A DNA stretch of 63,380 nt, filler included, from Collodictyon triciliatum (taxonomy: Eukaryota), in the NCBI GenBank assembly GCA_043381765.1. It is 6 parts of 6 records of this genome, joined end to end, with 100 filler letters (N's around TTAATTAATTAA, not from the genome) between each part and the next. Parts side by side here need not be neighbours in the genome. Positions count along the whole stretch, not along the records: positions 20,834 to 35,425 come from JBHJMP010000350.1; 5 more parts are not named here. One strand, 5' to 3'. The position numbers were made by a program, and so were the translations under genes. Under the pieces are notes generated by a model that saw nothing but the letters and a program-made list of their open reading frames with translations, did no database searches and was not told the origin of the DNA. This document shows, piece by piece, positions 3,511 through 50,529 of this stretch. Numbering within the stretch: the first letter of the stretch is position 1; each line of letters opens with the position of its first letter.

Positions 3511-6500
3511 ATGAATGAACCCATTGTAAATTCGGAATATGCCCACCCTTTCATTACCTCGCTGAATTGAATGACCATGATAATTTTGTGGTGTGGTTGT
3601 GTTTAAGAAAATACAACCCCGAGTTTTAAAATTCCTGCCACAACAACTCTGCACATCGCAAGACCCAAGAGCAGCGCATCTCCAAACCCCGAAAGAAGTC
3701 CTCTCTTAAACTACCCATTCAGACCGACATGAATATAGTTAACATAGGAGGAAACAAGACAGTCTTCGTTACTTATCCGAAAGGATACTCCAAAGCGAAA
3801 GCAAACACAAGAACCAGCGCCCACGAAAGATAATCCGTCTATAATAACAGAGGCCTCCATTTGTATCCATCGTATTGCAAAATATTTTACAAAACATATG
3901 CGGAAAATCCAATATTTTAAGAGATTCCAGATTCAAAACAAAGCTCATTAATAATAATTTATATATATTCCAGAATTTGAATACCGTTTTCCACAAGAGG
4001 CCGAGCTGGAACCAAAAAAAAAGGAGGAATAGACAGGCAATAGATGGAGATGGCTTGCCTGACTCACAGCCAGAAACTCAGCAGAAGCCTGCCGTGCGCT
4101 ACATGCCAGATCACAGGGACTCAAAAATCGCCACTGAAAGCACAGAGCTTGACAGGTTTGCATCGTTTATCAAAATCATTATCAACATTATTTTAAAATG
4201 GAACTATTAAATAAAACCTGTCACCCTTCGCACTGCCTCCTCAAAAAATAAATAGTCACTTCGTGCGTATATATCGACCCTTTTTCTTTTCCAGTGGCGG
4301 TCTGTCGCTTTCTGTGCCTCAAAACGTTTCGGTCTCTCTCTCAAATGATCCACCAAAGAGTCCGGATAAACTAGCGTCTGAATCGTCTCCTGATAATAAG
4401 GACTATTGGGAGGCGATCAGAAGTCAATCTACACCCATTAAAGCCATTGTCAAGGAGCTCAATGATCTAGAAGCGCGAGTCACAACCCCTTTTGATCGAC
4501 GAAAGAAAGCACATGTTCAAGAGATTCAGCGGAGAACACCGCAAGTAAATTCATCACTACGCTAATATCTTGATCCCTTATCCTCTTGATGTCTTGACGT
4601 CTTAACCTCTTAATCCCTTAATCCCTTAATCCCTTAATCCCTTAATCCCTTAATCCCTTAATCCCTTAATCCCTTAATCCCTTAATCCCTTAATCCCTTA
4701 ATCCCTTAATCCCTTAATCTCTAAATCTCTAAATCTCTAAATCTCTTAACCCCTCCACCTTTTAACATTTCATTCTCTCAAACTTGCATCCGACATTTTA
4801 TTTTTCGATTTCTTCTTGCACTTTGATATACTTTAACACATGATGTTACGGCAGCTTGCCAACTTGGATGTCGCTGACTTGGAAAGAGAATTGTACAAAA
4901 AGCCAAAGCATCATAACGCTTCAAGGTCTAGAATGTGGTTGCATGATGAGGAACGTCTAGTAACATCAAAGTATACATGGCTTTTTCTTTTTTTCATCAC
5001 CTTTATTGACAGATAGATAACAGATACCTGAGGAGTTTGCCATTTTTTTATAAGCATGTCTAAATTTATAGCTCGATACATGGAATCTTCGTGAACAATC
5101 TTAAAGTAATCCAAATAACGTAAAAGGGTAAACAAGGCGGACCCAAATATCTCCATCACATTGCAAGACACATTTGATGCATCGGGAATACGCTTGAATT
5201 CACCCCTTGCAAAGTTTATGAGTGTGCCTATGGACTCCCTTCCTCCACTTCGGCGAAGTAAGTTTGCATACTTTCCAACAATTTCACTTCCAACTTGTTC
5301 CCTTATGGTATGCGCCGATATATCTGACGGTGATCAATTCAATCGTGGAATTTAGCAAATGTTGGACACTCGAACATGTTTCCAGCTAAAGAGTTCAACG
5401 ATGCCAGCCTTCGCGCAAGGCAAGTCATGGTGGGTTATACTTAAAAAAATTACCCCTTTGTTGGGTCTGAAACGATAATATTAACCATTAAGAATTTTCT
5501 TTCATTTAAAAAAACTAATGTTTCATATGGTTTTATTCAGAGTGGCGTTTCATTCGTCCACTTGGATGATGACAATAAAAATTATGATAATCCGTTTCCT
5601 ATGGCATCCCTGAAAGGTAAATATACTTCAAAATTAGAGCCAAACATATCCGCTCAATAAATTGATTGATGCAATTTTTGACACCATTCATAATTGGTAT
5701 TTTAGATCAAGGAGTCGTAGAGAAGAAATCGTATGTTTTTCCTCATGCTATCATTTCACAGTTTTTTCATCTTTATTCGATTCAAGTGTATGTATGAAAG
5801 AACTTGCTCCTTTTTTCAAGCTCATGTTCATGCATTGCAGTTATGTTCATAGCCCGAGGTCTAGAACTGGGACATCAGACCAGAAAAAATCCAACTTTTA
5901 CAGGCTTAGCCCATTTAATACTACAGATGACACGTTATCAAGTATTTTCATGTTACAATTTATTTCTTGCTCCCATGCGCGATGTGAGTTTTTATCTTTC
6001 TCTTTATGGATAAACATTCTTTCATTGAAATTTCTTTAAAAAACAGTCACACGGAGAGTTTCCAAGCTTCAATCCTTATCCATGTCGGGTATAGGAGCAG
6101 CCCTGAATGACACATTGTCGACCACGGGTTCTGTTCTTATCACAAGCAAGTCGGGGAAGGTGAGAAGAAATATAACCGAATCAATGTAAAAATTGGAAGA
6201 TATAATAAAGGAAGTTACTGATGAAAGCGTTTCATATTACTGAGTCTAAATCTAGCTGTATACATAATATATAGGAAATCGATCGCGAAAAACAGCGAGA
6301 GGCAATAATTCCTCATATTCTTTTGTATCATCGATTCTCGTGTTTCAGTATCGCATAAGCATGATTAAACAATTAAAAGATATACTGAATAAAATAGGAA
6401 AGAGATAAAATATATGACCAAGAGAAAATAGAGCTCCTTCAAGTCAGGTCGAAGGAAGAACTAGACGAGTTAACAAAAATACTGGACTTCGACGCTGGGA

Positions 6501-7896: not shown

Positions 7897-9083
7897 CATT
7901 CAATCAATACCGATTTTTCTTTTTAAAATTACTGAAAAAATATCATAATAGCTCCTTTTTTTTCCCCTATTTCTATTTTTGAGTCCACCAAGTTATGAGG
8001 AATATTCGCATTTCTTTTGGGGTCAACTAAAAAATCAACAACAAAAGACAAAAAAAAACGCACTCTTTGGGTTGCTGCTGAATCTTTCCCTATCTCTTCC
8101 ACCCCCCGCATCGAAAATGATACTTCCAATTCTGGATTCCGATGTGACATGCTTCCATCCTGGACACAACTGTCTATTTTTAGCCACGAATTGATCTATT
8201 ATCCAAAAACGACTATCTTTGACCTTAGAGAGCGCATATAGATTAATTGAATCCTGGTTTTATAGAATCCCACTGGCTATTCGAAGAAAGGATACCAAGA
8301 TTGGACAATTCTTTGTTCACCCCGGCATTCCTATGTGCGTGTTTGCCCGCGCACGAGAATTTTGATCAATCGTCGCGTTTTTCGTCCTTTGGCATTTGCG
8401 TGTGTGTGTGGGTTGCGGGTTTATATTCGTGCGCTTTGAGTGAGCCTCATATCCAACAACGCATTTTCCAATCATTTCATGACACATGTCCACAACAACG
8501 CAGCATCCCATTACCAGATCCCTTTTCGCTTCCTTGTTCTTTTCCCTTCTCTTCTTTTCCAGTCCTCCTTTCATGTTTCACTTTGCTTCGATTATAATAG
8601 GGGATGTTTTTTTTTTTTCTCAAGTATCAGAACAAACCCCAGTCAAAACTGTGAAGAGGAAAAGCATAAACAAAAACAAAAAAGAAATACTCTGAACTGT
8701 GGGTTGTGGATGGAACTTGCAGATGCTTTTGCCTCCGCGGAAATTATTATTATAGAAGAGAATTACTTTTGAAAAGAAATAAAGGAATTGTGATGGAAAC
8801 AAACAAAAGAATCTAAAGAAAAAACGCATTACGGGGCTAAGTAAACGCCATTCGCGTAACCTGGCTGCGATCGTTGCGATCTGCCACTCGCTTGAGTACA
8901 TGAGCGATATCTGCCAGCTGCGAGTCCATTTCCCTTCATCTCTACTCTCCTCTCTCTCTCTCTTCCTGCTTCATTGCGTTAAAAAGAAAAAGAATAGAAA
9001 AGAATAGAAAAGCCCTTGATACACGCTGCTTGTCTCACCTGTCAACACACACTCAGGCCAGTGGGGTTGGATCTGTCTGCACA

Positions 9084-12206
<3,123 letters not shown>

Positions 12207-14538: not shown

Positions 14539-16334
14539 TATCCAAATTTAACGAGAAAATGCGAGAAAGTAAATGCCGCAATATTTTCAAAACGATTCAT
14601 TAGATTACAACCTTCATTTGATTAGCCAAAAATGACGGGTCCTGGCTCTGTATCTGCTCCAACATGCTTCGTGCCTTTTAAATAGCGTACAAACCAAAAT
14701 TAAAATAATATCAATCAAGAGAATTGAAGAGTACATTTATCTAACAATGTGATGTGGTAGAATTACGGGGGCAGAATTAACGATGGGTTGTTGCGTTGAA
14801 AGCATCGCCGCAGGCTGCTTTTGTTGCGGATTCGAGCCATTATCGAGTGAAGATGCAACTCCACTTGGTGTTTGATTGAAGGCAGAGGTTTGTTTCATGG
14901 CAAGATTGGCTGGCTGTGGGACTGGTATTTGAGAAATATTCGCTGTCATTCCCATCGAGCTTTGACTCATGCCATAGGCTAATTGGTGGGCGCTTGGGTG
15001 TACATTTTGGTTGCGGCTGAGACTTTGCTGCGACCCTGCTGGTGAAGGGGACGGCATTTGGATGGATAGTCCGGGAGGGACAGGGGTTATTTGTCCATTC
15101 AAATTCGGTATCGTGTGATTCGATGCGAGCATGGATGGTGTCATATTTCGATACATCGCACTGGCGGGGAAGTTTTGCGAATCGTAAAATCCTCCTTGGT
15201 TGATGCCTGATGCTGGAGCATAACCAGCGACTCCATCTTGCATGAGAATAATCGAATTATGTACACGTAATAAGAATGTGTTGGAGGATTTGTCTTATAT
15301 TCAGGTCGTTTTCATAAATACTATAAGAGGTCATTGTATTGTTGGAATTATTGTTATCGTTGATTTGTTACTCCTCTTCTTACCAATGTATGTGTTTTGT
15401 GCGTCAGTGAAAGGCATCTGATTTCTTGGTGTCATCTGCGGATAATAATTGAGTGATATGAAAGATAAGTTTGTTTATTTTTTTTTCATGATTTACACTT
15501 ACGTAACCTTTTTCCCCAAGAGATAGTTTTGGTCGAATAGAATGTGGGTGGATTAGTATCATAATGTATATAGGGTAAATAAAAGAGTGGCACGGGATCT
15601 TTGAATCGAATAAAGGAAAAAAGAAAAGAGTGGCACAGGATAAAGTCAAGGAAATTACAGAGGCTTACTGCGGTTGTAGATGTCACCATTTTGGGTAGCT
15701 GCGTTTGCATATTCCATGATAGAGAGGGGAGTTTGTCCGATGGACTGTTCGGGAATAATAAACTGTGCCTGATTCATCCCCGAAGGTCTTCCTTGCATTC
15801 CTGACCACGAAGTAGATACACATATACATATATTTATAAAGAAGTATTGTTCGTTGATGAAAAATACAGGGACTCCATTCAGCATATGATACCCATGAAT
15901 TGATGTTGTGATTAATTAATTGAATTGTTTAAAAGAAATGGAGACAGGGGGGTATATAACCAACCAGGCGGCATGGACATAGAAGCAACTTGTCCAGTTT
16001 TTCCACCATATGGATTCTATAAAAGGGAGCAGTGTGTTAGTATATTTTTTAAAAGAAAATCTTGGATGAGATACACTTTATAAACTTTTCAACGGCCAAA
16101 CATGTATTCAACTTACTGTTACCACTACCATATTATATTGTAGAGATTATTAGTATTATTATAGTGATTGATGTTGTTGTCACTAACAGAGTGGACAGGA
16201 ATCGGCCGCGCAAGGGGTACTGGGTTCTGAGACTGGTTTTGCTGGGACATCTGCGCGGAAATGTGACCGGAGTAAACCTGTGTGTCTGTTACAAGTGGCC
16301 TTCGCGCACTGTTGACTGAAGACGACATATTCAT
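13331..16334 (-). CDS. CNOT2: CCR4-NOT subunit NOT2; ends at 13504, or at 13331 if a final intron is spliced
   Basis: RFGLQGFL...LALGTDLTSLGLDLN...LYKKFDSPW...YSIPSCY...FSEKTLFYIFYSKP...AAEELNGRGWVY is the NOT2 box; Q/P/S-rich N-terminus. Confidence 0.88.
14441..14535. repeat. (AAT)n microsatellite
   Basis: Direct reading; intronic. Confidence 0.95.
15599..15623 (+). mobile_element. micro-retroelement copy C with 18-bp TSD
   Basis: AAAAGAGTGGCACGGGAT [CTTTGAATCGAATAAAGGAAAAAAG] AAAAGAGTGGCACAGGAT. Confidence 0.8.
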
Positions 16335-19260: not shown

Positions 19261-19878
19261 ATCATAAGAGGAGCCGCCATTTTTTTTCTTTCCGTTTATA
19301 CTGCTCACCACACTCCTTTGTTCCTTTTCACTTTTCTTATCAATAACTTTCAAACCCAGAAATAAGGTTTCATCATACTGCCCTCGTTAATAAACGATTT
19401 CTATGGAAATATATTTGATATATGTGTATATCAAAGGATTTTTTCCCCTTTATTCAATTCAAAGATATATCCCAAAGTATGATACGCTTCTACGCAAAAT
19501 CACACCTCAGTGATATGCTTTTCACTCCTAATGAAATTGTTTGTGTATCCATTGTCTTCTCTCATCAATATGAGTATGTGTATTTTTTTTTTTTTTTATT
19601 GCCGCAGGGTTTATTCAAAGCATATATGCCGAATATTTTTTGGCAATAAGGAATATCCATTGGAACAATAGTAATCGTGTTTATTGTTGCTTGGGAACAG
19701 TGCGAAGCCAAACAACCTTTCTTCTATCTTAGTCTGTCACCTCCCTGCAGAATTATAAGAGAAAATAGGAAAGAAATAAAAAAAAAAAAAGGAAAAGGAA
19801 AAGGGATTGTTATAAAAACATTCAAATTCACATAACCTGAGGTGGACATATAGATGAATTTGTAAATATAAATAGACA

Positions 19879-20733: not shown

Positions 20734-20833
20734 NNNNNNNNNNNNNNNNNNNNNNNNNNNNNNNNNNNNNNNNNNNNTTAATTAATTAANNNNNNNNNNN
20801 NNNNNNNNNNNNNNNNNNNNNNNNNNNNNNNNN
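20734..20833. other. assembly linker N-TTAATTAATTAA-N (also 35426-35525, 41060-41159, 51666-51765, 57207-57306)
   Basis: Identical 100-nt spacer carrying stops in all six frames, found five times. Confidence 0.95.
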
Positions 20834-22600
20834 GATCAATTTCATATTAGCAACCGACAATACAAAGTGCTCGGCGTCGAGGCATCGGAGAAGTTGCATG
20901 CACAATTCAGAAACAAGTTTTATTTGTGCGCAGGACATAAAATTTCAAGCATGAATGAAACGCGCATTACTTCGGACGATGAGGTAACAAGGCTATCAAA
21001 AAAATAAGTATGATGGCATCGCATCGGCAAGGCCGACGAGTCTAAGACATGCTTTAGTACACGCCATGTAAGGTCAAGAAAAGCAACCAATGTGATAATC
21101 TGTTCAACGAGGGTGTACTTGAGAAACTGTTTGCAGAAGGATTGCGAGGCTTTGAGTCTATCAATCTAGCTCAGGCTTTTTCTGGATGCTGCCTTTGTTG
21201 GTAATGAAGTTGAAATGGCTCGGAATTGATTGCTTTAATACATTCCTTTCAAATATCTGAGTTGATTCTTGGCAGCAATACGAATGCACACATGCATTTA
21301 ATGCAGTATACGGCTTATATAACTCAAAACCATGAAAAAAATATGAGCAGATGATGATTCTGACGAAAAAAGAGCGGATATACAGACAGGACACACTTTC
21401 TCAATACCTTTTTGAATTTAAGACGATGGGCAACCAGTACTAAAATACACCCTTGAATGTCACGGAAACTCTTTTGATAGAATTGCTTTGTTTCAATATA
21501 TATTTTTGTGCTTAAAGAAGCGGACTGCATAATATTTTTAAGATGAATGCCGCCGTGAAGCACTCTTTTACCTAGAGTGGACAAATATTAGGAAATGAAA
21601 AAGGGCGCTTTCAAAAAGAAATGATTTGTCAATCAATTTATATGCGCAAACAAGAATATGGGCATGGGATTCGACAAAAAATATACGCATCGCTTCTGCA
21701 TCTGAATGCAAGTAACACATCACCATATCGCAATAGAACCTATTAGAAGGCGGAAAAAAACAAACATGGGTTCAACTATCCGTTTATGTTGGTTTTGTCA
21801 AACTTTTACAAGCGTAATTCGAATTTTGACGAACTGTACAAGAATTGGTTGTTGAAGAATCGCCCAGTTGTCCATTAGTACTATCCAATCATTATATGAG
21901 CATTTGTTTGTTGATTTAAATGCTTTTGAGAGAAAGAAGAGTATGGAAACATTCAAGGGGAGAACCATGTATATCGATGGAATTCTGTCGATGTAAAATT
22001 GCAAATGGCCACACCACAGTTCCATTCTACCAATACTCAAATAAAGTCTGATTTGCTCAAATATTTATAATGCAGTTTTAACCAAAGGTATGAGACCATT
22101 ATAAAACAAGTCTGCAAGTGCTCACAGGCATTTGCTTAAAATAAGAAAACAATATTACCTTAATCATCATTAAAGCTAAAGTTTTGAACACACTGGTATA
22201 GGAAAACAGCTGAAATATGCTGACACCCCTTTGAGGAACATTTCAGATTTTGTAGAGCGAAGCAAATAACAACGAAACGAATAAATGAACAACATTTCAT
22301 TGTTTTTTTGGGTAAATTTGTACCACTTTTTGCCTTCATAAACTATTCTTCTATGTTCGATACACTTCCCTTTTCTGCTATCGTTTGATGTAAGACTTGT
22401 GCAAACTTTCCTTGTGCTTGTCTGATTTCATGAGAGCGTCTACGATTTTAGGCCCCTTTTTTTTGTGAGAGCGTCCACGATATTCATTATGGGCACACTG
22501 AAATACTTCAGCGAGGCAATTTTAATCTCTAACTGCTTTGGATTCATTCAATATTGAATTCAGATAAAAAATAAAAAAAAATGTCTATAGAGGTATCATG
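20834..22600. pseudogene. decayed, intron-less coding-like DNA, probably part of a mobile or viral relic
   Basis: Long stretches with few stops, no splice structure and no microsatellites, next to the integrase relic; no family recognised. Confidence 0.3.
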
Positions 22601-22820
22601 AAAGCCAGAGTAAAAAATAAATTCAATATTTTAGATAGCTTGTCGATTCCGAAAAATATCAAAGAGATTACCCAAGGGTTTTGGATAAAATGGTCAGTTT
22701 GCTTTCAAGTATATATTATTGTATAATTTCTCATCACATTGGAATAATGTTAGAAAATATTATCATCGCAATGGGAATTTCGAGGAGTTATTGATATATT
22801 GTTTATGTGTCCAACCAACC

Positions 22821-22846
22821 TCTTTGAATCGAATAAAGGAAAAAAA
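22821..22846 (+). mobile_element. micro-retroelement copy D with perfect 16-bp TSD
   Basis: ATGTGTCCAACCAACC [TCTTTGAATCGAATAAAGGA7] ATGTGTCCAACCAACC. Confidence 0.85.
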
Positions 22847-23199
22847 ATGTGTCCAACCAACCGAACAAAGTCATGATAAATGTTACAAAGTCCCTGTAAA
22901 AATCATTAAATTGTGGGCTGTGACAAACGATAAAAGATGCAGCGTTACCATGGACATAAAATAATTGTTTATCAAGTCCAAGTTTGATATGAAAGAATAC
23001 AGATATGGTTTCAACAAGTGACAAAAGCGTCACCTGCAGAAGCCAACAAGAAATAGTGCAAGATTTATAAGAAAAATTACTCAATAAATGAGAGACTAAA
23101 TAAATTAGCATAGTAATGTTACAAATAATGTTGATGAGGCCGATTCAAAGCTGAGGAGACTGATAGCCCAGAGAAAATGAAACGTGGAAGACCCAAGAA

Positions 23200-24652
23200 T
23201 TATTTCAATCCCATTTTTAAACTTAAAATCTCTATTGGAGCCCTCTCGGCTCCTATATTTCATCTGATGACCGTATTTTTGATAGGTTCATCAATTTCGT
23301 CTCATAACTCAAACCCTTCTATGAGTCGCTATCTGGGCTTGTGTATTTTGATAAGTGTGATAGTATTTTCAATCAATAGCAATTCGAAGCCCATGAACTT
23401 TTTCTTTGGATTATATTCGTTATCACATTTTTTTGAAATAAATAGCACCATTTTGTTTTGTGGGTTTATACTCTTTCAGTCCCGTATAAATTTACCAACT
23501 CCAACAGGCAAACAGCTTATTTTGCACTTCATTAATCTAATCAGATTAAATATTCGTTTTTCCGATAAAATTTGTAATTAATCGGGCGCTGAAAAGTTTC
23601 ATCAGTTCTAGCGTCTTTTTCTTACACACATATTATATTTCTTGATTCTCTTGAGATTGATTTAGGCACTTTGGAAGTATCGCTACCTCGGGTACAACTC
23701 TTTTAGTTTTGTCTTTGCCAATGTTGGTGCTATCTACAAACTCCTACAAGCTTGGATGAACATTCCTCATTCTTTTGTAGGTATCCATATAATGCGCGTC
23801 TTAGGATTTCGTTCCCTCCTTTTACAAAAGTGTTAGTTATGGATTTTTTCGGCTGTGACGTCACTGATTTGATATTGTTGGTCATTAAGAGTTTTATGCA
23901 CTTTTGCCTTGAAACTCTTTGCTGTTGTCTGATTGATTTACGGTGATTCCTTTTTCATATTGGATGAATTTCTACAAAGCTCTGTATATCTGTTCTCTGA
24001 GATTTGGCTCGAGTGGGTGAACTATTATTTTTATTGTTTTTAGGCAACTACACATGTCAAAATAAACTTTGTATCCTTAAGGTCTAGCTTCTCTAAATCG
24101 ATAGTATTGGTCTGAACATAGCTTGTTTTGTATTTTGTTAAAGTGGTAGGCAGGTGTTCTTTTTTTCTTGCTTTCTTGATTTCAGTGTCTAGTTTTCTGG
24201 TTTTTGGTGCACAATATTTTTTCTTTTATTGTAATATCTCGAACTCTTTTACTTACACGTGGACTCTGGATATTATTCGTGTGTTTAGAGGCAAAGTTAA
24301 ATTCCTTAATAATTTTTTTGCTTGAAGTGCTCACAGGTTATATTGATTGATTCAGAACGTAAAAATCATCTTCATTTATAAATATTCACTTGCAAAGTGA
24401 GTCATTTGATATCTGATTGTTAATTTTCCACCTTATATACTCTCATATTTTTTTTATTTTTTATTTGAATATAAAGGAGCGCATATCATCTGTATAAATA
24501 TAGTCTCTGAGAATAATGGACTTGGTGTAGTATTTCAAATCCTTCCTCTGGAATTTATTTAATTTGCAACCTGTAGTTTTACTAAGCTTTTCAATTTTTA
24601 CTTGAGTACATCTGGAATCCGGAATGATATAGCGATTGGGGAATGATTTCAT
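23200..24652 (-). mobile_element. pseudogenised retroviral-type (rve/DDE) integrase; Polinton, Ginger or virophage-like
   Basis: Across frameshifts: YVQTNTIDL...KFILTCV...HPL...EQIYRAL...NQSDNSKEFQGK...NNIKSVTSQP...TNTFVKGGNEILRRAL, matching the order of rve motifs (Q.D..D; YILT..D; QSDNG.EF; S.P....NG.VE..N..L). Confidence 0.7.
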
Positions 24653-25210
24653 AAAACATATACAATTGAAGGAATCAGGTCACTGTGATGTAATACTAAA
24701 AAAAAAAAATACTTTTTTGAGGCAAAGATTGCCAGGTTCAGTAAGCGCCATCCTTTCCTTTAAATTACTGGTGAATATGGGAAACATTTAATATCATATT
24801 GAACCTCATTTCTGATGATGCTACTCGATTAACCCTCGGATACGCTGATGTAACTTGCCAGCGCTACCTCCGAACATACGATGCAAATGTGAAATAAAAC
24901 GATATAATTCATGTCATAATGGTTTTCTATTTGCGGAATTTAAAATTATTTAGTCACTTTAGGCTAAATCTGATGAATAGCAACATTCAGTCCTTCTTAT
25001 TATATACCTGATAAATTACATAAGCGTTGGAATGTCCTATATAATGCCCTGCACTGTTGCGTGTCCTTCATCTGCGGATTTCACAAGACAACAACACAAA
25101 CACACCACCCAACAAACGTCTTGCTTTCTTCACGGGTTTGCAGAGTTTTGGTACTGTGCCGCCGCTTCCACAGCCTAATCCCTGCAACTAGAAGACGCCT
25201 GTTGCCAAGT

Positions 25211-26579
25211 ATGGCCTCGGAATCTGCCCCAACCTTTGTGAGCAACCCTCTTGTCTGGGTTGACCTGGAAATGACGGGTCTTGATCTGGAGAGGAATCAG
25301 ATCATTGAAGGCGCGGTCATCATAACAGACGGGGATCTCAACATCGTCGCTGAGGTGATTGGATTTCTGTTCTATGATTTGTTGATCAACATCCTTTTTT
25401 TTTCATTTTCATTATCATTATCATTATCATTATCATTTTCATTATCATTTTCATTATCATTTTCATTATCATTTTCATTATTATTATCATTTTCATTATC
25501 ATTTTCATTATCATTTTCATTATCATTATCATTTTTTTCCAGTTTTTCGGTTTTTTTTTCCATTCAGATAATACTTCCGAAACAAAAAAAAAAACAAAGA
25601 AAAAACTGGACTTGTACTACCGCAGAATCCATGAATACGACATCTTTGTTAACTCATTCATATTCATGGTTTTTCATTTAGGGACCGAATCTTGTAATGC
25701 ACGCCCCCGATGAAATCTTGGATGGGATGGGCGAATGGTGCAAGAAGCATCACGGAGAAAGTGGTTTGACAGAAAGAGCCCACACAAGGTGATTTATAAC
25801 TGCTTTCAATAAGCCAATTATTTCGTATATGTAAATGTCAATAACAACCCTTATATACATTTATAATTTTATATATGTTTTCAAAACACATCCGGAATAC
25901 AGTACTGTTTCTCTGAAGGATGCAGACACGCAATTCGCAGAGTTTGTGCAAAAGCATGTACGCAATGGAAAAGGAATCCTGGCCGGAAACTCAGTCTTTT
26001 TAGACAAAAAGTTTCTTGAAAAAGACATGCCTACCTTTCTCTCTCATCTCCACTACCGCATCGTGGATGTCAGGTGAAACTTTTCTACAATGAACAATAT
26101 AGAAGCAGAAATTTTCACATACATTTTCTTTGATGCTGCTGCTCTCCAGATGAATGCATGATTTGGCTTCAGAAAGTAGCGATGCTTTCTCATTCAGTTC
26201 TATATCCTTGCTCTCCAATCCAATCATGACTAGCACCATCAAGGAGCCTTGCCGACGTTGGTACCCAAAAGAGTTCTCATCCGCCCCTCAAAAGAAAAAC
26301 ACTCATCGGTGATCATTTTTATAATATATACTTTTAAAAAAAAAACCCTGTTAACTCATCATTTCTGTTTCTTTATTCATAACATGATTGATTCCATCGA
26401 CTCACCCATCCTTACCAATTTTGAATGACATACGCGTGTGATGTTTGGTTGTATGATGAATTGCATTATCACCCGAACATTGGCATTTTATCCTTAGTGC
26501 CCTCGATGATATCAAAGAGAGCATTGAGGAACTCCGTTACCATCGCCAAAACATCTTTTTCGTGGGTTCAGCACCCTAA
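25211..26579 (+). CDS. REXO2: oligoribonuclease (Orn/REXO2), 5 exons
   Basis: [58 protein letters not shown]. Confidence 0.95.
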
Positions 26580-26819
26580 CTGACATCATAGTAACCGAAT
26601 ATATATATAATTTTCAGTTAAAGCATGATATCAATTTCTTTTGCTATCTTTGAATCCAGATCAACTCAACCAGCCTTGCCAGCTTTCACACAGGCCAATC
26701 AATCGACTCCTCCTCAAGCTATCCACGCCTGAAAACTTTCCCTTAAATAATAGTTCTCGTGGCTACCTACACGCAGATTAGCAAACTACCTAACCAGCGA
26801 CAGAAAACATGGTGAGGAC

Positions 26820-27215
26820 TTTTTTCTTTTTTTCTTTCTTTTCTTTTTCTTTCTTTTCTTTTTCTTTCTTTTCTTTTTCTTTCTTTTCTTTTTCTTTCTT
26901 TTCTTTTTCTTTCTTTTCTTTTTCTTTCTTTNNNNNNNNNNNNNNNNNNNNNNNNNNNNNNNNNNNNNNNNNNNNNNNNNNNNNNNNNNNNNNNNNNNNN
27001 NNNNNNNNNNNNNNNNNNNNNNNNNNNNNNNTTTTGCTTTCTTTTGTTTTGTTTTGTTTTGTTTTGTTTTGTTTTGTTTTGTTTTGTTTTGTTTTGTTTT
27101 GTTTTGTTTTGTTTTGTTTTGTTTTGTTTTGTTTTACTTTGTTTTGTTTTACTTTGTTTTGTTTTACTTTGTTTTGTTTTGCTTTGCTTTGCTTTGCTTT
27201 GTTTTGCTTTGCTTG
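26820..27215. repeat. compound T-rich microsatellite (TTTTTCTTTCTTTTC)n / (TTTTG)n spanning a gap
   Basis: Direct reading. Confidence 0.9.
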
Positions 27216-33901: not shown

Positions 33902-36363
33902 GGGGAAGAAAGAAAAGATGCAGGGGTAATTTTGGGATTTAGATGGCAGGCACGGCGACTATTCTGTGGGGGGTTTGTGCGGATTTGTCTCTGGGAATGC
34001 TGGGGAAGTGGATTGTGTGTGTATTTTGTTTTTGAGTGAGATGTGATGTGGATGGAGAGGATGGTCTGCTGTGGTTTTTTTTCTCTTTCCATAGCACCTT
34101 TGATGGGTTTGGCATGAAAGCTAGTGCGATGATGGAACCAGAAGATGATGATTGAAAAAAAAAACAAAACAAAGAAACAGAGAAACAAAGAAAAGAAGGA
34201 AACAAAGAAACAAAGAAAGACAGATAGAAACAAAGAGAGAGAAAGAAAAGGTAAATGAGTTGATTTTAATATTTTCTGTTTTTTTTTGGAGCTCAGAATA
34301 TCACGAGAACCACAGCCCTTGCGTGCGATTCATCAAGCGGGTTTGTTACGGCTATCTCGAGCGAGAGTTATATTGTCACTTGTCGCTGTGAATCCGAGAT
34401 GGTGTGAGGGGTTTTCTTCCATCAACATATTTGCTTCTCGCTTTTTTGTGATCGAAACATGTTGTGAGGATACAGAGCCGAGCAAAATCGCAGCTGACTT
34501 TCGAGACGAAAACAAAATGAACTTGTCACGCATCTTATTGATTCGCAGCCGTGTGCAATAAAAACGCGTGTTCGTTTGTGTTCATCACACTTCGCTGGTG
34601 TTGGGTGTCTTATTCACCAATTTGTATTGGAAATTTTCTTTTTGGTAGTACTTTGGCGATGTTGCAAGCAAAGCAATCGTTTTGAAAAAATAAGCATGTT
34701 TCTTTCATTTTTCTTGGGAGCCGAGGTTACTAATTTACACGAACGAAGAAAATGTGTTTGTCATTGATGATTTCGTTTTTCGAGTGGGAATTGAATAATC
34801 AAATAATCAATGAACAAAATATACTGCTTTATAAGGTATGGGCCATATATAAATCAACCCCAGCAAGTTAGAATAACGCGTTTTAAAACGCATTTTGAAC
34901 ACAAGTGTCATTGTTTATTGCAACAACCAATTTGACAAACAGAACGAAAATGATGTTGCGAAATTTTCGTCAAAGAGCCTTGTCTTGAATTTTCAGTCAG
35001 GATGGCAATAAATGTAATAGTTGAATGAATCCTATGGGAAATTTGGCTTTCCTGTGGAGGTCGATTCTTTCAATATATTTCTTTCCGAATCATTATTTTC
35101 CAAGATTCGCTCTGCTTGCAATATGAAGTTTGTTGTTGAACGCTCAACGATTCCACTTAAAAGAAAAAGGAAAAACTTGCAACATCCCGTGCCTCAAAGC
35201 TCGCCAATCTTCCTCGTGATTCTGCCTCCAGTCTTCGCAAACTCGTGTCTTTAGAGCCGAAAGTCTCGACAAAGCATTGCCAATTGATTCTCGTTGTCAT
35301 CGAGAGCTGCCACTTATTATTTTCATTCCTTTGCCACCAAATCACAGCGAGAAAAAGACACGTGCCTCCAGTATGGTCTCGAAGCGCCTCTGCTGAAATG
35401 CACAAAGAACAGTTGGGGAAGCAAANNNNNNNNNNNNNNNNNNNNNNNNNNNNNNNNNNNNNNNNNNNNTTAATTAATTAANNNNNNNNNNNNNNNNNNN
35501 NNNNNNNNNNNNNNNNNNNNNNNNNATAAAAAAAGAGAGAATAAAAAAAAGAGAGAATAAAAAAAAAAGAGAATAAAAAAAAGAGAATAAAAAAAGAGAA
35601 TAAAAAAAGAGAATAAAAAAAGAGAGAATAAAAAAAGAGAGAATAAAAAAAGAGAGAATAAAAAAAGAGAGAATAAAAAAAGAGAGAAAAAAAAGAGAGA
35701 ATAAAAAAGAGGATGGTCAAGTCGCTATGTTGCGTAAACCGCGGCTCACCAGGAAGCTTGTTGTTGTCAGTGTGACGGAATCTTCTCCTAATTTGTAGGC
35801 TGCGAGTTATTTTTTCTTCAGATTTTGACCTGTGCACACTTTTCATCGCGCTGGGTGTGCAAATTTTTGGATTTGGGCTGGATGGCGGACTCAGTGGCTC
35901 TTGAAGATGAATGACTCGCTTTATGGCCAGGACATGCCAACAAACGCATTGAGGCATCATCGCCCAGAGACCGCCATTTCCGTTTCTAGCATATCGGAAG
36001 CTTGGTACGCAAGTTGAAATCATAATCGCCTTGCTCTGCATCGAAAACGCCACAGACTCGGGATATTCATTCATGCGGCCAGGAAACGAAAGAAGCTGAG
36101 TGCGTAATCATATCCGCTTGCTTTATGAAAACGAGAATACCATCTAGTGTTATTATCATGATTGGTGTCATTGATTAGATGAGTTTTTGGGCAGAGTATT
36201 CAATGCTGTCGTGGGTTGCAACCAAGATGACGTTTTGTTGAGAGACAAGTATATCAAATGCAAAATTTTTTAGGATAATTTCAATAGGGAAAGAAGAATG
36301 TGATAGGGCTTTATAAATGATTCTTGATGTTCTATTCCTTTGGTTTAGAGCATATTATCTAGA

Positions 36364-38661
36364 CTAGTTTGCCGCATTCACAGGTGCCATTGTTTGCAGG
36401 AAATGCAAAGCGTTTTTTGTCTCCATTTCCTTGCGTGTCTCATCCCATCCAAGTCTACTGGCCATTAAACTACACGACAAAAAAAAAAAAAAAAAAGTCA
36501 TGCAAGCCGCTCATTTTATGATAAACAAATTACTGATACCAGTGCGCATAATGAAATGAGCAAGGATAAAGGCGTGAATCGAAAAGAAGTGCCGTGAACA
36601 AATGAAAGCCCATGGATTTTGCAGAGCTTTTATACTTACTCTACCACTCGCGGAAGCGCTCGAACAGCTTCTTTCTGGTCAAGAAATGCGAGCCGTGTGC
36701 GATGGGCAAGAACATCCACAGGGTTGCATGCGTACTCATGGTCTACAGCATACAAGACTTCAGCCTCGAGATAAGGATACGAGGGCGACAGTCGTTGAGA
36801 AAAGCCTTCTTTGTAGAGGTCAGCAACTAGAACAGCCCGGTCTCCTACAGGTTATACTGTTAGATGAGTTTTATCCCTCTCGGTTCAAATCACAATCCTT
36901 GCTCGGATGTATAAGGGGTTGAAAATGTTTTTGGAGGTAATTCACGACGAGAGAGCACCCACCAAACCACCAAAGTACCAAAAAATCAGAACATCAAAAC
37001 AAGATATAGAATGAACATGGTGCAGAAATTATGTGGGTCATTTCTACCGTAGTATTTTGCAAGGTGTTGCGCGATATTGGTCTCAAGTCCGTCTGTTTGC
37101 CATTTTAATATCATGTTTAAATACTATTCATATGAACAAAACAAAACAAAACAAAACAAAACAAAATAAAACAAATTAAAACAAAATAAAACAAAATAAA
37201 ACAAATTAAAACAAAATAAAACAAAATAAAACAAAACAGAATAATAATGAAATAAAATATAACACAATAAAGCAAAACAGAATAATAATAAAATAATAAT
37301 AATCATTTTGATTTTGTAAGGAATAGTTTTTCGACCACTAAAAAGAAATAAAACCACATTATAAAAAAAATAATCAAAGGAATTAATCTGAACCTAATAA
37401 GTTAGAAGAAAATGCAATTGAATATGAAATCGAAAAAAAGAGAGGGAATCCTTTGTACACTTACATAACTGGGCCAATTTGGTAAACAGAGCCAAATCGT
37501 ACTGATGCGCTCCAATTAGTTTAAGTTGACTGGTAAGGCAGGGATAGACATTTTTAAATTGACCAACCTGAGCAGCAAATTGATTTAGAGTTGCAGGACA
37601 ACTATACTAATATAAATAAAAAATAATGGTATACTAGTAGCAGTACTTAAATAGTGCATCAAAAATATCCCTTTCAAGGAGTTATAACAAGAAGTGTCAT
37701 TGCTCACTTGAATTGCTTTGTCAAGAGTGTCTTCAGCCATTTGCCGGTAAGTCGTCCATTTTCCACCGACGACTGTGACCATTTGGTTCGGGTGCACATA
37801 GACAACATGGTTGCGGCTGACTTGTGCTGTGTTCTTTGAGTTTGGATCCCTCGCCAGAGGACGAATTCCGCTCCAGGCAGACTGAGAAAGAGTCAATCGA
37901 AGATAAGTCAAATGACATGGCTTTGTTACATTTTTTTTTAGGAAAAGAAAATAAAAAGAAAATAAAAAGAAAATAAAAAGAAAATAAAAAGAAAATAAAA
38001 AGAAAATAAAAAGAAAATANNNNNNNNNNNNNNNNNNNNNNNNNNNNNNNNNNNNNNNNNNNNNNNNNNNNNNNNNNNNNNNNNNNNNNNNNNNNNNNNN
38101 NNNNNNNNNNNNNNNNNNNGAAAATAAAAAGAAAATAAAAAGAAAATAAAAAGAAAATAAAAAGAAAATAAAAAGAAAATAAAAAGAAAATAAAAAGAAA
38201 ATAAAAAGAAAATAAAAAGAAAATAAAAAGGAAATAAATAGGAAATAAAAAGGAAACAAAAAGGAAAAAGAAAAAAGAAAAGGGAGATGAAGGAATCGTC
38301 ATGTATAGATTGCAAAATACTCGCACATTTTTTTTTATTCTTCCTTAAAACACTCGCACATTATCTTTGTGACATTTTCTTGGATATCGTTATGTTATAC
38401 AAATCAAAAGTCAATAGGGATTTATGCAAAAAGAAAAAAAAACACTCAGAAGAAAGGAATGAACGACATTTGAAGATTTGAAAAGGTAAAAAAAAATAAT
38501 TCGTCAATATACCAACATTTTAACTATTGCTATGATACCTTCACATCCTCACGCCTTACAGGAATACCAAGATATGCCGATATTTCACCCAATATTGCCT
38601 GTTTATCATATGAGAAACATATTATGGCAAAATAAAGTAAATACATAAATAAATAGTAAGT

Positions 38662-40886: not shown

Positions 40887-41221
40887 CTAAGAAAATGACA
40901 CGCCACCAGACAAGACATAGAAATGAAGCAGAATGAAACAGAAGAAAGCAGAAGAAAGCAGAATAAAACAGAATAAAACAGAATAAAACAGAATAAAACA
41001 GAATAAAACAGAATAAAACAGAATAAAACAGAATAAAACAGAATAAAACAGAATAAAACNNNNNNNNNNNNNNNNNNNNNNNNNNNNNNNNNNNNNNNNN
41101 NNNTTAATTAATTAANNNNNNNNNNNNNNNNNNNNNNNNNNNNNNNNNNNNNNNNNNNNTTTTTTTGTCCTATCATATTTAGCGAAAATACCACGCGGAG
41201 TCTGATTGTGATTCTTCCTAG

Positions 41222-41480: not shown

Positions 41481-44400
41481 TTTTGAAATGAAAACCTTGG
41501 GTGATAGCGGTATGAAGCAGAGAGCGCAAAGTCTGTAGTTGTATTTGTAAATACAACAACTCATATTATCTACTTTTCTGTCATAAAGCCGTTACGTGAT
41601 ATTTTTTAATTGAAAGATTATAATTTATTGTACGCACACCACATAAAACAGAAATGAGAGGATCACAGATGAGGCCAAAGTACAAGAAAACCAAGACATT
41701 ATTCACAAGTGGTTTATGGAGAACTGCTCTGCTCATGGGATCGAGTCCCCATCAAATGGAAAGGGTCTGGCATATCACTCACTTATTTAATTAACAGTCA
41801 CATTCACCACGCACCACTTATCATGGAGGTACTTATACATACAGTGAAGTATGCTTATCAACAAAATAACGGAATCTCTCCATAGTTGCACCCAAAGCAA
41901 CTCTGAGATATCTAGCTAGGGTCGCTGCTTTTATGCCTCAAGTAAGGGTCAATTGCTCTTTCATTTATTCGTCAAAAATTAGCCATGCAACCAAAAAAAC
42001 AAAAACAAGTAGTCACCCAGACTCATAGGTTAATGAAGCCAGCTCTCTCTGGAATATTCTTCGATCCCATCTGTTCGACGGTCGGTTGCTCATTTTCATA
42101 TTGTATCATTATTTTGTTTGCTTTTGTTTGATTTTGTTTGATTTATATTTTATTCTTATACTAATTGTCTTAAACACCAGATTCGGAGTCCATCACCCTT
42201 TTATTCCTCGCTATCTCTTTTAAAAACTTGGATTTGTAATTTTTAATTGTTTACTCTACCCATCAATCATCAATGGCGATTATTTGCAGAGCACTGAACC
42301 ATTTTCTTAGCCTTGATAGGTCTGCATCATATCTGGAAAAAAGCATGGAGTTGGCCCGAGCCGAGCAGAGTTATGCAAAAATTGGATTCATTATCCACTA
42401 CTATCTGGGAACCATTTATCATTTGGATGATATGTAAATTGCTTATTTCCATTTGAATACCTAGTGCTTAAATCTTACTCAAATGAAAACTCTTCTGTGA
42501 ATTTTATTCTTTGGTATTCACTGGATTTCTTTTAAAGGTTCCAGCAGGCTCTCGAAGAATATACAAGAGCTCTTTCTCTCGTTCATGATAATGAAGGAGA
42601 CCATAACTCGCACACTGCGCTCCTACATGGTGTAATTGGGGACTTATATCTGTCCCAAAACAAGTACTTGATACAACTTCAAGCGTATCCGTATTATCTC
42701 GATATTAAATGCAAAAAAATATTTTATTTTTCTTCGCATATCGGTATCGTATACTTGAAGAGAGCATCCATATTAAATGTGAATTTACCCATTAGATTGT
42801 CTGAGTCATCGACCGAATATTCCATATCGATGAATAGCTATATTCAAATCGGTGATGATGAAAGCATACCTGCTGCAATCTCCACCATGAGACTTGGTGA
42901 TGTGCTGTTGGCTGAAAAAAGGTAGTAGTCTAACGCACGATATCCCGGCCCCCTCCTTTTTTTTATTTTTATTTTTTTATCTATAATCTGCTTTGTATGA
43001 TACTAATAATTGAAAACAATCAAGATTTGATGCAGCCAAGGAAATTTTTGAAAAAGCCAAAAGTTTTCTCGTGAAAGCACCCGAGGTCAAGAAGTACCAC
43101 CTTGTTCAAGTCGATGTACGAATTGCCCAAACCTTCTTGGCGACCAACAAGTTTGTTCTTAAGAAATTACTCTATTACTTCTATTTCTATTCATTTTCTT
43201 TTCCTTTTCCTTTTCTATTCATTTTCCTTTCCTTTCCTTTCCTTTCCTTTCCTTTCCTTTCCTTTCCTTTCCTTTCCTTTCCTTTCCTTTCCTTTCCTTT
43301 CCTTTCCTTTCCTTTCNNNNNNNNNNNNNNNNNNNNNNNNNNNNNNNNNNNNNNNNNNNNNNNNNNNNNNNNNNNNNNNNNNNNNNNNNNNNNNNNNNNN
43401 NNNNNNNNNNNNNNNNTTTCCTTTCCTTTCCTTTCCTTTCCTTTCCTTTCCTTTCCTTTCCTTTCCTTTCCTTTCCTTTCCTTTCCTTTCCTTTCCTTTC
43501 CTTTCCTTTCCCTTTCCTTTCCTTTCCCTTTCCTTTCCTTTCCCTTTCCTTTCCTTTCCCTTTCCTTTCCTTTCCTTTCCTTTCCTTTCCTTTCCCTTTC
43601 CTTTCCCTTTCCTTTCCCTTTCCTTTCCCTTTCCTTTCTTTCCCTTTCCTTTCTTATTTCATTAAGCACCGATTTCCCCCAATTACTTACAACTCTTTAA
43701 CAGAGTACCAGAAGCTTTATCTCTCGTAAAACAAGTACATGAGGCCCTCACCCACCCACGGGAAGATTGGACATGCCAAAATGTGGAAGCTCTAGAGTTA
43801 ATTGGAGATACATACCATGAGTTGAAAGAGTAATTACTTATTTCTTTTATAAGTGCTCTATTCTTGATATTGTAATATTTTGACCCGCCAGTTACAATTA
43901 ATCTTTATTGTTAAAAATATTTTGTTTATTCACAAAGTCCTTTATGTCCATATGGTCATCGCATTATTATTCTCCTCTTGCCTCTGAATTGAACAAAAGA
44001 AAGAAAAACTCTGTTATATTTTTTTCACATGGTTTTCCATTCCAATAGATTCAATGAAGCATTGACTATTTACCAGAGAGTACTTGAAGAACGAAAAATT
44101 TTGAATGGGACGAGTCACCCTCGCTATGCTACATCTCTAGAAAATGTTGCACGTACATACTTCGAGCTCAGAAGGTAAAGTTGGCCGTTTCAGGAAAAAA
44201 CAAAAACAAATCACCATCGAACGAATACTTATATATTCTTACACAAAAATTTACCAGAATTTATCAGCCCCTTTTATATGTTTTTGATTCATCTCAATAA
44301 TTTCATAAACATCCCCCTTTACTATTTTAGTCATGAAGGACTGGGGATATATTTTACAGAAGCGTCCAAAATTCGCTCAGTATCCGGTTCCATCTTCAGC

Positions 44401-47400
44401 CTCAAAGATAAAACTCAAATAGAAGGTTTGATTGAAGTTATGAAATCCAAAAGCGAGCACAAAATATCCATACTACTTTACAAGACACTGTTTACTTGCT
44501 TATCAAAGTCTTTCGGATACACAAGCCCTCATGTGTGGAGGTTATGTACAACTGCTGATACATTTTTTAGCTCTATGAAAGCAAATGAAGACCTTGTGAA
44601 ATTCTGGGAATACATCAGAGATAGATACTCCAAAAAACTAGGGTGGGCACACTCCATAGTGCTAAACTCCTGTGAATTTATCTTTAGTCATTCAGTTACC
44701 TTGGGTTCAAGAAAGGAAGTTGCTGAATACACAGGCGTTATGAACTTCATACGCGATATTATTCCTAATGCAAACCTCGATGCCAATTGGAATCGTCACC
44801 AAATAATCTTCTATTTGCACCAAATTGTTTTAATGTCGAGAGAAAACGAAACCTTTTCAAAGGCTTCTTCTGAAGCACTTACTCTCTTAAATTTCATGAA
44901 TGTTCCACTTCACGGATTAGATTTGTCCCGAGTCCATATACCAAATGCTAACTTAAGCAATTCAATTATCAGCGGGGTTAATTTTACAGGAGCAAATTTG
45001 ACAGGAGTTGACTTCACCAATACATTGATCGAAAATTCATCGTTTAAAGAAGCGAACCTGGATAGCATCAAGCTTAGCAAATCAAAAGATAAACTAGAGG
45101 GTCACATGAATATGGTCAATAGTATATGCCACTATACTGGTCCAAACAACGAGAATTGGCTGATTTCTGGGGGAGGCGATAACCGAATCATCGTCTGGGA
45201 GATGTCCACGGGCAGCCTCCTCAAAAAAATCGAACGGCATACTGGGGAAATAACTTCAGTGATTGAAATACATGACTCTCAAGGGGAATCACTCATTGCC
45301 ACAGGAAGTAAAGACAAAACTATCCGGATTTGGGACATCACCACTTCAGAGGAAAAGAAATGCATTGAGACAACTTCTGAAGTGCACAGTATTTGCAAGG
45401 TGTCTGGTCCAAACAAGGAGATTTGGGTGGCATCTTCTAACGAGGACAACAAAGTATACATATACGACGCTGAATCGGGTGCCCAAGTGAAGGAAATCTC
45501 TTTAAAAATAGCGTATCCACGCATGCTCCAACCACTTTACGGTCCAAATGGAGAAGATTGGGTTGCATTAGCTGGGTTTGGGGGTATTGAGCTCCTCGAA
45601 ATAGCAACATCTAGTCATGTTAAACTACTTGAAGGACATTCTGGTGATGTTAAAGCCTTATGTAGCATCGAAGGAGAAAATGGAGAGCAATGGTTGGGGT
45701 CCTCTGGTAAGGATGGAACCATACGAATTTGGGACTACATAGCTGGAAACCAAATACAGCTGATTCACGGGCATGATGAATCAGCTACAACTCTTATTAC
45801 TGCCCGTGGTTTGGGTGGGGAGTATTTACTCATATCTGGAAGCAGTGACACTTCTGTGCGTGTGTGGGATGTAAAAACGCACAAGAAGCTAGATATGCAT
45901 GCAGTTTACACTGGCACAATAACATGTTTATGTATCGTCAAGGGTCCAGGCAATGAGGTGTTAATAGCTGCGGGATGCAGAGACCATTCTATTAGACTAT
46001 TTGACTTACAGTCTGATAACCAGATCAAAGTCCCAGAAGTCAAGAAGGAGATTATTGTTTGTGTTTGTTCTGTTAAAGGCCCAGATGGAGAGCCATGGCT
46101 GGCGTCAGGAAGTACAGATGGAACCATAAATATATGGGACTTGACGACCGGCTTTCTCATAAAGAAAATCGAAGGACATTCCGACACAATATACACGATT
46201 ATTTCTGCACAAGGGCCTAACGGAGAGGAATGGATTGCATCTGGAAGTAGGGATGAGACCACTCGTGTTTGGAATTTGATAAGCAGCAGCCAAGTCTACA
46301 TATTGAAGGGCCACCAGTCATCCGTCCGTACCCTTGCAGCCGCCAGAGGGCCAAATGGGGAAAATTGGATTGTTTCTGGAGGCAGTGATTCATACATGAT
46401 TCTATGGGACTTAGCAAACGGACAGGAAGTAAATAAATTATCTGGAAACGATACAACAGGAGCATGTTTTGTGCAAGGCCCAAATAATGAATCATGGCTG
46501 GTTTCAGGCAGCAGTTACGGCAAAGTCACATTGTGGGATTTGGGTAGCGGCAACATAGTTCATTCTGAAAGCGGCCATAATTTCTCAATTTACGGTATTT
46601 GCGCTGCCCAAGGGCCGATAGGACAGACGTGGGCTGTATCTGCCAGTGACGGTGATGAAAACAACTTGGTTGTTTGGGACTTGACAAAAATGGAGAAGTT
46701 GGTTACATTATCTGGCCACTCTGTAGGCGTATATTGTGTATCAAGTTTCAAAGGTCTCAAAGGAGAAACCTTACTCGCATCCGGTGGACGCGATGGTACA
46801 GTTCGTGTATGGGATATAGTGAATAAGAAGCAGAAAAATGTTTTTGAAGGTCATAGTGATTATGTGTGGAGTGTCTGCTCTACTACGAATGCGAATGGTG
46901 ATGTAGCAGTTATTTCTGGGGGTTGTGATCAAACAATTCGTTTATGGAACGTAAATACAGGGAATTGCATCGTTACCTTAGATTCACAAATGGATACCAT
47001 TCAAAAAGTAGCTCCAGTGAAAACCCCTACGGGCAGAAGAGGAATTATATCAAGAAGTTTTTACGGAGTCCTCACATTGTGGGATATTTCTAATGGGAAA
47101 ATACTCTCAGAAGTATCTATCGCTGATATTGTGCTTACCGATGGGCAAAAACTGATCAACAAAAATGATGGACATGTCTTGGCCACATTCAACAGCCCAG
47201 ATTACGCATCGGATTTCTTTGAAGACTATAAGAATCTCAAAAATCCTCAAAGAATCCTGAAGCAGAGGAAATTACAAGGGAATGATATTCATTTAGAGGA
47301 TACCATAAATTTGAGTTTGTACAATAAAATGCGATTGTTTTCTATTGGTGCTACGTCAGTCGACGCTGATTTTACAAACTATTGTGAAAAAGGCAGCTAT

Positions 47401-50400: not shown

Positions 50401-50529
50401 CAGATTGCTGGGGAAAGCTACAAACACCCACAGGCGCACCAAGTTCTGTCGGAGTGCTATGAAAATGGCTGGGGTGTGGAGAAGAACCCCGAAAAGGCTG
50501 CTGAGTGGAAGGCAAAAAATCCTCAATAG
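41222..50529 (+). CDS. giant repeat protein: CH-like domain, about 6-7 TPR, pentapeptide repeats, about 15 WD40, 14 SEL1-like repeats; 5' end truncated
   Basis: LLFWANHLL...DEDLGDGFLLLKLIE (CH-like); TPR exons at 42320-44174; terminal exon 44331-50529 open for more than 2000 codons. Confidence 0.88.
43223..43652. repeat. (TTTCC)n microsatellite spanning a gap, in a TPR intron
   Basis: Direct reading. Confidence 0.95.

Follow-up and report, generated by a model that had tools for sequence, protein, structure and literature searches.

The window, by which we mean the whole 63,380-nucleotide stretch of DNA analysed, is gapped, microsatellite-rich, intron-bearing eukaryotic sequence. Its PSP1-domain gene is matched best by a transcriptome-derived protein from Diphylleia rotans, a collodictyonid, with 53% identity across 93% of the query, and fungi are lower at about 43-45% identity. 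The host appears to lie within or near a little-studied, deep eukaryotic lineage, and the mobile elements of collodictyonids are not treated among the literature matches listed. The landmarks of the window are:

8904-12203, plus strand: PSP1-domain gene
25112-26811, plus strand: RNase_T-type exonuclease gene with GT..AG introns at 25353-25679 and 26072-26231
44179-50529, plus strand: intronless ORF of 2116 codons that combines pentapeptide repeats with numerous Sel1 repeats and about two WD40 propellers
58709-58780: tRNA-Glu(CTC) gene
20734-20833, 35426-35525, 41060-41159, 51666-51765 and 57207-57306: gaps, each a pair of exactly 44 N with 12 bases between

The N-terminal part of the 2116-codon ORF matches only pentapeptide-repeat proteins of metagenomes. 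The exonuclease gene is represented by cDNA-like contigs from two sequencing runs, its transcript starts at about 25112, joined directly to adaptor with no spliced leader, and a second version of it, allelic or paralogous, differs by about 5-10%. The paired gaps always lie inside simple repeats and look like an assembly convention, not biology.

Dispersed through the window are eight copies of a 19-nt unit, each with an A-rich tail. Two further poly(A)-type insertions of other sequence accompany them. In the lines below, TSD denotes a target-site duplication and coordinates are those of the window:

Copy 1, 491-545 (core start 503), plus strand: insert at about 502-527, CCTTTGAATCGAATAAAG followed by A8; decayed 8-nt low-complexity repeat TATCTATC at 491-498 and 534-541
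Copy 2, 5759-5787 (core start 5770), minus strand: TTGAATCGAATAAAG followed by ATGAAAAAAC; no flanking repeat and no TCT
Copy 3, 15581-15641, plus strand: TSD 15581-15598, insert 15599-15623 (CTTTGAATCGAATAAAGG followed by AAAAAAG), TSD 15624-15641; 17/18 identical
Copy 4, 19427-19477, minus strand: TSD 19466-19477, insert 19439-19465 (TCTTTGAATTGAATAAAGGGG followed by A6, core with one mismatch), gapped TSD 19427-19437; CTTTG[GG]ATATA on both sides with a 2-nt gap
Copy 5, 22805-22862, plus strand: TSD 22805-22820 (ATGTGTCCAACCAACC), insert 22821-22846 (core start 22822; TCT, TTGAATCGAATAAAGG and A7-8, core perfect), TSD 22847-22862; 16/16 identical
Copy 6, 57434-57468 (core start 57451), minus strand: CCTTGAATCGACTAAAGG followed by the decayed tail AAAAACAAACAAAAAAA; no flanking repeat
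Copy 7, 63145-63206, plus strand: TSD 63145-63160, insert 63161-63190 (CATTGAATCGAATAAAGG followed by A12), TSD 63191-63206; 15/16 identical
Copy 8, 52553-52606, minus strand: TSD 52592-52606, insert 52568-52591 (CTTTTAAATGAATAAAGG followed by AAAGTG, core with three mismatches), TSD 52553-52567; 14/15 identical
17-nt insertion, 38314-38362, minus strand: TSD 38347-38362, insert 38330-38346 (AAGGAAGAATAAAAAAA), TSD 38314-38329
222-nt insertion, 58058-58311, plus strand: insert 58074-58295, ending in GAATAAA and A16, with a 16-bp TSD (15/16 identical)

The family is far more numerous than base composition would predict. With up to three mismatches allowed, the 18-mer CTTTGAATCGAATAAAGG has eight matches in the 63-kb window against 0.14 expected, and none of 100 shuffles reaches eight; TTGAATCGAATAAAG with up to two mismatches has seven against 0.46 expected, and again none of 100 shuffles reaches that count. 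The copies are divided equally between the strands (four plus, four minus), at a density of one per 8 kb. The unit ends in AATAAA, flush with the tail, and every core is followed on its 3′ side by an A-run that is either pure (A6 to A12) or decayed. Core mismatches number 0, 0, 1, 1, 1, 2, 3 and 3 across the eight, and this spread, together with tails that range from A12 to decayed, indicates that insertion was repeated over time; copy 5 is probably the youngest. The six copies and three direct repeats listed in an initial annotation are all present as described there, 5762 and 57434 being the low ends of minus-strand tails and the repeats matching exactly at 16/16, 17/18 and 15/16 (copies 5, 3 and 7). 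To these we add two diverged copies, with cores at 19447-19464 and 52574-52591 (both minus strand), and, for the second of them (copy 8), a fourth clean repeat pair.

Four of the eight copies are thus enclosed by unique direct repeats of 15, 16, 16 and 18 bp that abut the core start on one side and the end of the tail on the other. Two more have decayed duplications (copies 4 and 1) and two have none (copies 2 and 6), so that the downstream duplication lies directly 3′ of the A-tail cleanly in four of eight and in decayed form in two of eight. The clean duplications (copies 3, 5, 7 and 8) vary in length and, apart from the motifs discussed below, are unrelated in sequence. Significance was assessed by placing the same geometry at 19,120 random positions of the window and counting only matches that were not of low complexity. 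The clean duplications have p values of 0.0011 (copy 5), 0.0014 (copy 3), 0.0020 (copy 7) and 0.0023 (copy 8). The repeat of copy 1 has p 0.015 and is flagged as low-complexity; that of copy 4 has p 0.10 when scored ungapped, and copies 2 and 6 each have p 0.63. In a first null that retained microsatellites, p for the duplications was about 0.02, because the window holds many tandem arrays. A repeat scan of all 238 A-runs of at least six in the window (137 plus-strand, 101 minus-strand) found, outside microsatellite arrays, only five that are flanked by repeats: copies 3, 5 and 7 and the 222-nt and 17-nt insertions. An exact-seed search returned three pairs in the right geometry and two in the wrong one, both of the latter within coding repeats of one gene.

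The two copies with no duplication also lack TCT at their start, and copy 2 has CAC at that position. The tails of copy 8 (AAAGTG, 52568-52573, minus strand) and copy 2 (ATGAAAAAAC then TGTGAAATG, 5759-5770, minus strand) are both followed by TGT(G)AAATG-like sequence; alignment of the wider flanks of these two copies revealed no homology.

The unit also recurs beyond the window. Seven sequencing runs were listed as candidates, all with shares of at most 0.09; none contains the locus itself. Contigs of four of them were aligned to 21000-26900, and among these no contig spans an insertion site in its empty state. Two of the runs, X2 and X4, are cDNA-like, with adaptor at contig ends, and a third, X3, is a freshwater metagenome. 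Some X2 and X4 contigs contain the spliced exonuclease gene at 25112-26811 without any differences and with GT..AG joints, which implies that these runs contain either this organism or one very close to it. Within 22773-22969, X2 and X4 cover only about 22814-22852, that is, the unit itself. Contigs of X2, X4 and X3 match about 22813-22852 alone, carrying the unit over about 30 nt and then unlike sequence on both sides, and so represent further copies at other loci. The match of one X2 contig starts exactly at 22821. Provided that both loose ends come from a single contig, this copy appears to be flanked by a 16-bp repeat, mismatched at one position, whose first bases are ATGTGT. The X3 contig (267 nt) matches 22813-22847 with two differences. 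Searches of viral contigs and of prokaryote genome contigs for the unit gave no matches in either. Metagenome matches to a 21-mer, at 23 loci of which 12 are one sequence, were set aside as chance matches, since none of the 23 has a flanking repeat or a TCT start within 50 nt on either side.

These observations bear on whether the family arose by retroposition at all, or instead reflects a motif that is fortuitous or functional (such as a cassette for the poly(A) signal), the footprint of a DNA transposon or an artefact of assembly or amplification. The window is a gapped draft rich in A-rich microsatellites, and AATAAA followed by A-rich sequence is common in it (71 of 197 AATAAA sites), which leaves some room for such an origin. 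Yet the enrichment over shuffles is more than 50-fold, the 15-18 bp duplications are unique, non-repetitive and placed exactly at the unit edges, none of the eight copies abuts a gap, and the unit is found in independent contigs from three other runs. We therefore consider an origin other than retroposition very improbable.

The companion insertions show the same machinery at work in this window, in the 222-nt case on a longer template. The 222-nt insert is pyrimidine-rich and lies about 400 bp upstream of the tRNA-Glu gene; it has no further copy in the window and no match in Pfam or Rfam. The 17-nt insertion has a 16-bp duplication (15/16, AATGTGCGAGT[G/A]TTTT) that starts AATGTG. The first bases of this insert, AAGG, are those at the end of the core, and it may either derive from a different template or be a still shorter member of the family. 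Evidence for target-primed reverse transcription by a LINE enzyme can be summarised as (i) the A-tails; (ii) the terminal AATAAA; (iii) variable duplications of 14-18 bp; (iv) insertion in both orientations; (v) the range of ages; (vi) the two companion insertions. The first three are the hallmarks to which the initial annotation had appealed, and they hold up here. We regard this mechanism as highly probable. The family, its tails, its duplications and its constant start are direct observations; the enzyme, the RNA species and the way in which the 5′ end of that RNA is made are what we infer.

The near-constant 5′ end, already remarked upon in the annotation, is borne out: the bounded copies start within 1-2 nt of one base. 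In all four clean copies C2 of CTTTG is separated from the duplication by 0-1 nt, and the inserts start TCT, (T)CT, CA (one change from CT) and (T)CT, so that every cleanly bounded insert begins at T1/C2 of (T)CTTTG. Although the sample is small, the ends of all eight window copies lie no more than 3 nt from T1 and none is shorter. The count of core suffixes with AAAA directly behind them was flat at three for every length from 7 to 16 nt and fell to two only at 17-19 nt, and hence the window holds no shorter copies with 7-16 nt of the core. Upstream of T1, no sequence is common to any two of the eight.

How the 5′ end is fixed is the point on which the most serious alternative turns. The copies could be ordinary 5′-truncated copies of a LINE that ends in the 19 nt of the unit, with a narrow zone in which the reverse transcriptase stops or switches template, owing to a pause site, a bound protein or an upstream structure, and with longer copies elsewhere in the genome. 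Tail, AATAAA and variable duplications fit this account equally well. The L1 element Ylli of Yarrowia lipolytica leaves very short pieces, 104 fragments from 30 bp to 1 kb in a graded series, and its describers state that no duplications were identified (PMC5014426). At the junctions in the window, overlaps of 1-4 nt (T, CT and TCTT) are shared by the duplication as its last bases and the insert as its first. Short overlaps of this kind are also typical of truncated L1 junctions. In two outside contigs the match begins further upstream, about 3-7 nt before T1 (4 and 7 nt), as judged from alignment coordinates only. On the same coordinates ACC would precede TCT in three copies, these two contigs and copy 5, which hints that for some copies the template may have been longer and the stop spread over a ragged zone.

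Against truncation of a LINE, none of the eight window copies reads through, no upstream sequence is shared by two of them, and shorter copies are absent from the window. The eight reach 17-19 nt and none is shorter or longer, a pattern that a constant per-base (geometric) stop rate cannot yield on both sides; such a rate is ruled out, and the unit is either discrete or bounded by a very narrow stop zone. The continuous distribution of 5′ ends expected of an ordinary truncated LINE is not what the eight window copies display, the distribution as a whole being drawn from these eight and about three outside contigs. No parent LINE or source gene for the unit was found in the 63-kb window either, no small RNA was seen, and a search of the 162 window ORFs (1 + 20 + 141) for a reverse transcriptase or endonuclease domain gave none. 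The copies thus resemble 5′-truncated poly(A) LINE copies in having an A-tail with AATAAA flush against it, dispersal in both orientations, duplications of 14-18 bp and junction overlaps, and differ from them in a 5′ end fixed within 1-2 nt, in having only 19 nt of unique sequence, in the lack of graded lengths and in the lack of a parent element in the window. We consider truncation of a LINE a possible but doubtful explanation.

The description of the family as SINE-like in the annotation needs to be withdrawn. The unit shares with SINEs a short, non-autonomous sequence with a constant 5′ end, an A-tail, duplications and dependence on LINE enzymes. Unlike SINEs, it has no transcription of its own: 19 nt leave no room for A and B boxes, and hence for an internal polymerase III promoter, and there is no tRNA-, 7SL- or 5S-derived head. 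Rfam and ARAGORN reported nothing at any copy and, in the window, only the one tRNA gene. It follows from the missing promoter that the copies cannot themselves be sources of new copies, and that all of them stem from one or a few sources. The unit is also 4-5 times shorter than the shortest SINE that we found mentioned, Platy-1 of about 100 bp, described as the shortest one known in primates (PMC4864456).

Comparison with other short retroposed sequences places the unit at the lower extreme. LINE-tail repeats offer a parallel in form, being short repeats that make up a family of their own and have the sequence of the 3′ terminus of a LINE transcript. One of them is the Drosophila 'suffix', about 265 bp long, which has the same sequence as the F element at its 3′ end; the unit differs in its length of 19 nt and in that the LINE of suffix is known, whereas none is in hand here. 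A conserved 3′ stem-loop of the kind that the reverse transcriptase recognises in stringent-type LINE and SINE tails was sought in the unit, but the best fold (-1.3 kcal/mol, z -0.18) is no better than shuffles, and in all five copies tested z lies between -0.18 and 0.63 with none significant, so that a structural tag for the enzyme is not evident. Two other origins were considered and rejected. A tRNA trailer does not fit because the lone tRNA gene ends in a T-run and has no likeness to the unit. A spliced leader is excluded because transcript 5′ ends at 25112 and 26731 join adaptor directly to genomic sequence, and also because AATAAA with a tail behind it is the mark of a 3′ end.

The ends of poly(A) RNAs are also copied in trans, with duplications, in processed pseudogenes and orphan 3′ transductions, usually as single copies with variable 5′ ends. 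The 222-nt and 17-nt insertions resemble them, and the family differs from them in being multi-copy with one start. The copies might nevertheless be fragments of processed pseudogenes, made when the extreme 3′ end of a single abundant cellular mRNA was mobilised in trans. The machinery does use other templates, as the 222-nt and 17-nt insertions, with other sequences ending in GAATAAA and an A-tail, attest, and copy 2, having no duplication, could be a native gene end. This copy, however, carries CAC in place of TCT, no source gene was found in the window, and we know of no precedent for eight trans mobilisations of one mRNA within 63 kb with the cut at an identical base each time. We think an mRNA end unlikely.

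Our preference is for a short discrete template, ahead of a fixed stop on a LINE RNA, with an mRNA end last. We propose that the copies are 'dead-on-arrival' products of a single RNA end, short, discrete and polyadenylated, with the sequence (T)CTTTGAATCGAATAAAGG and an A-tail, a reading that we hold to be as apt to prove wrong as right. A LINE-encoded endonuclease would nick the bottom strand, often at T/A(A)ATG, and the freed 3′ OH would prime reverse transcription at the A-tail. About 19 nt would then be copied, as far as the 5′ end of the template, and a second nick 14-18 bp away would give rise to the target-site duplication. The constant start would accordingly mark the template 5′ end and not random truncation. 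The template would most likely be a processed 3′-terminal fragment of a longer polyadenylated RNA, either a LINE transcript or the product of one master gene, and its 5′ end could be generated by endonucleolytic processing, by a ribozyme or by a stop.

The target sites point to some choice by the endonuclease. Duplications of copy 5, of the 17-nt insertion and, if its loose ends are joined, of the X2 contig begin (A)ATGTG; that of copy 8 begins TAAATG, and copy 7 has TAT before GTCC. A tendency for duplications to start with (A)ATGTG or AAATG after T is thus seen over the sites at 22805, 38362 (minus strand), 52606 (minus strand), 63143 and in the outside contig. It is unlikely that ATGTG stands at three of eight duplication starts by chance, on a comparison made post hoc in a small set with ambiguous borders between tail and duplication. 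The consensus nick site of L1, the type named in the annotation, is TTTT/AA, by which duplications would start with an A-run behind a T. Here T/A fits most sites and only one of the five clean window duplications (copy 3) starts AAAA, and the sequences at the sites suggest an endonuclease with some preference that would be unlike that of L1. The duplications of copies 5 and 7 also have GTCCAACC in common. A larger repeat behind this shared sequence was rejected, as the remaining flanks are unlike.

Retroposition itself is a known mechanism; what the comparisons suggest to be new, within a small sample, is a 19-nt multi-copy unit with a fixed start. A literature search of partial coverage found the 15-mer of the unit in no published paper and, in work on the shortest SINEs and retrotransposons, no 19-nt multi-copy unit with a fixed start. 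A bolder form of the short-template proposal, which we advance tentatively, is that a discrete RNA, released from a longer transcript and made up of about 19 nt and a poly(A) tail, may be the smallest template known to be mobilised as a multi-copy family through target-primed reverse transcription, with an endonuclease preferring T/ATGTG-like sites. If the template is a discrete RNA of this size, it would set a new lower bound for repeated copying by LINE machinery, and a poly(A) tail with fewer than 20 nt would be enough for efficient retroposition. The family would also offer a natural system for asking what sets the 5′ end, the end of the RNA or a stop by the enzyme. Should the window in addition be typical of the genome, thousands of copies would be expected, in a protist lineage whose mobile elements are undescribed.

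Because each copy brings AATAAA and an A-run, at one per 8 kb, the family could give rise to poly(A) sites and A-rich microsatellites, and the window abounds in both. A-rich minisatellites occupy 1-220, 35527-35710, 37950-38230 and 40961-41060; their units, for example (CATAAAAAAA)n, (GAGAGAATAAAAAAA)n and (CAGAATAAAA)n, contain (G)AATAAA and A-runs, and these arrays could have grown from the tails of such insertions. At 4600-4720 there is a tandem array of the 8-mer AATCCCTT, with about 15 units that decay into AATCTCTA.
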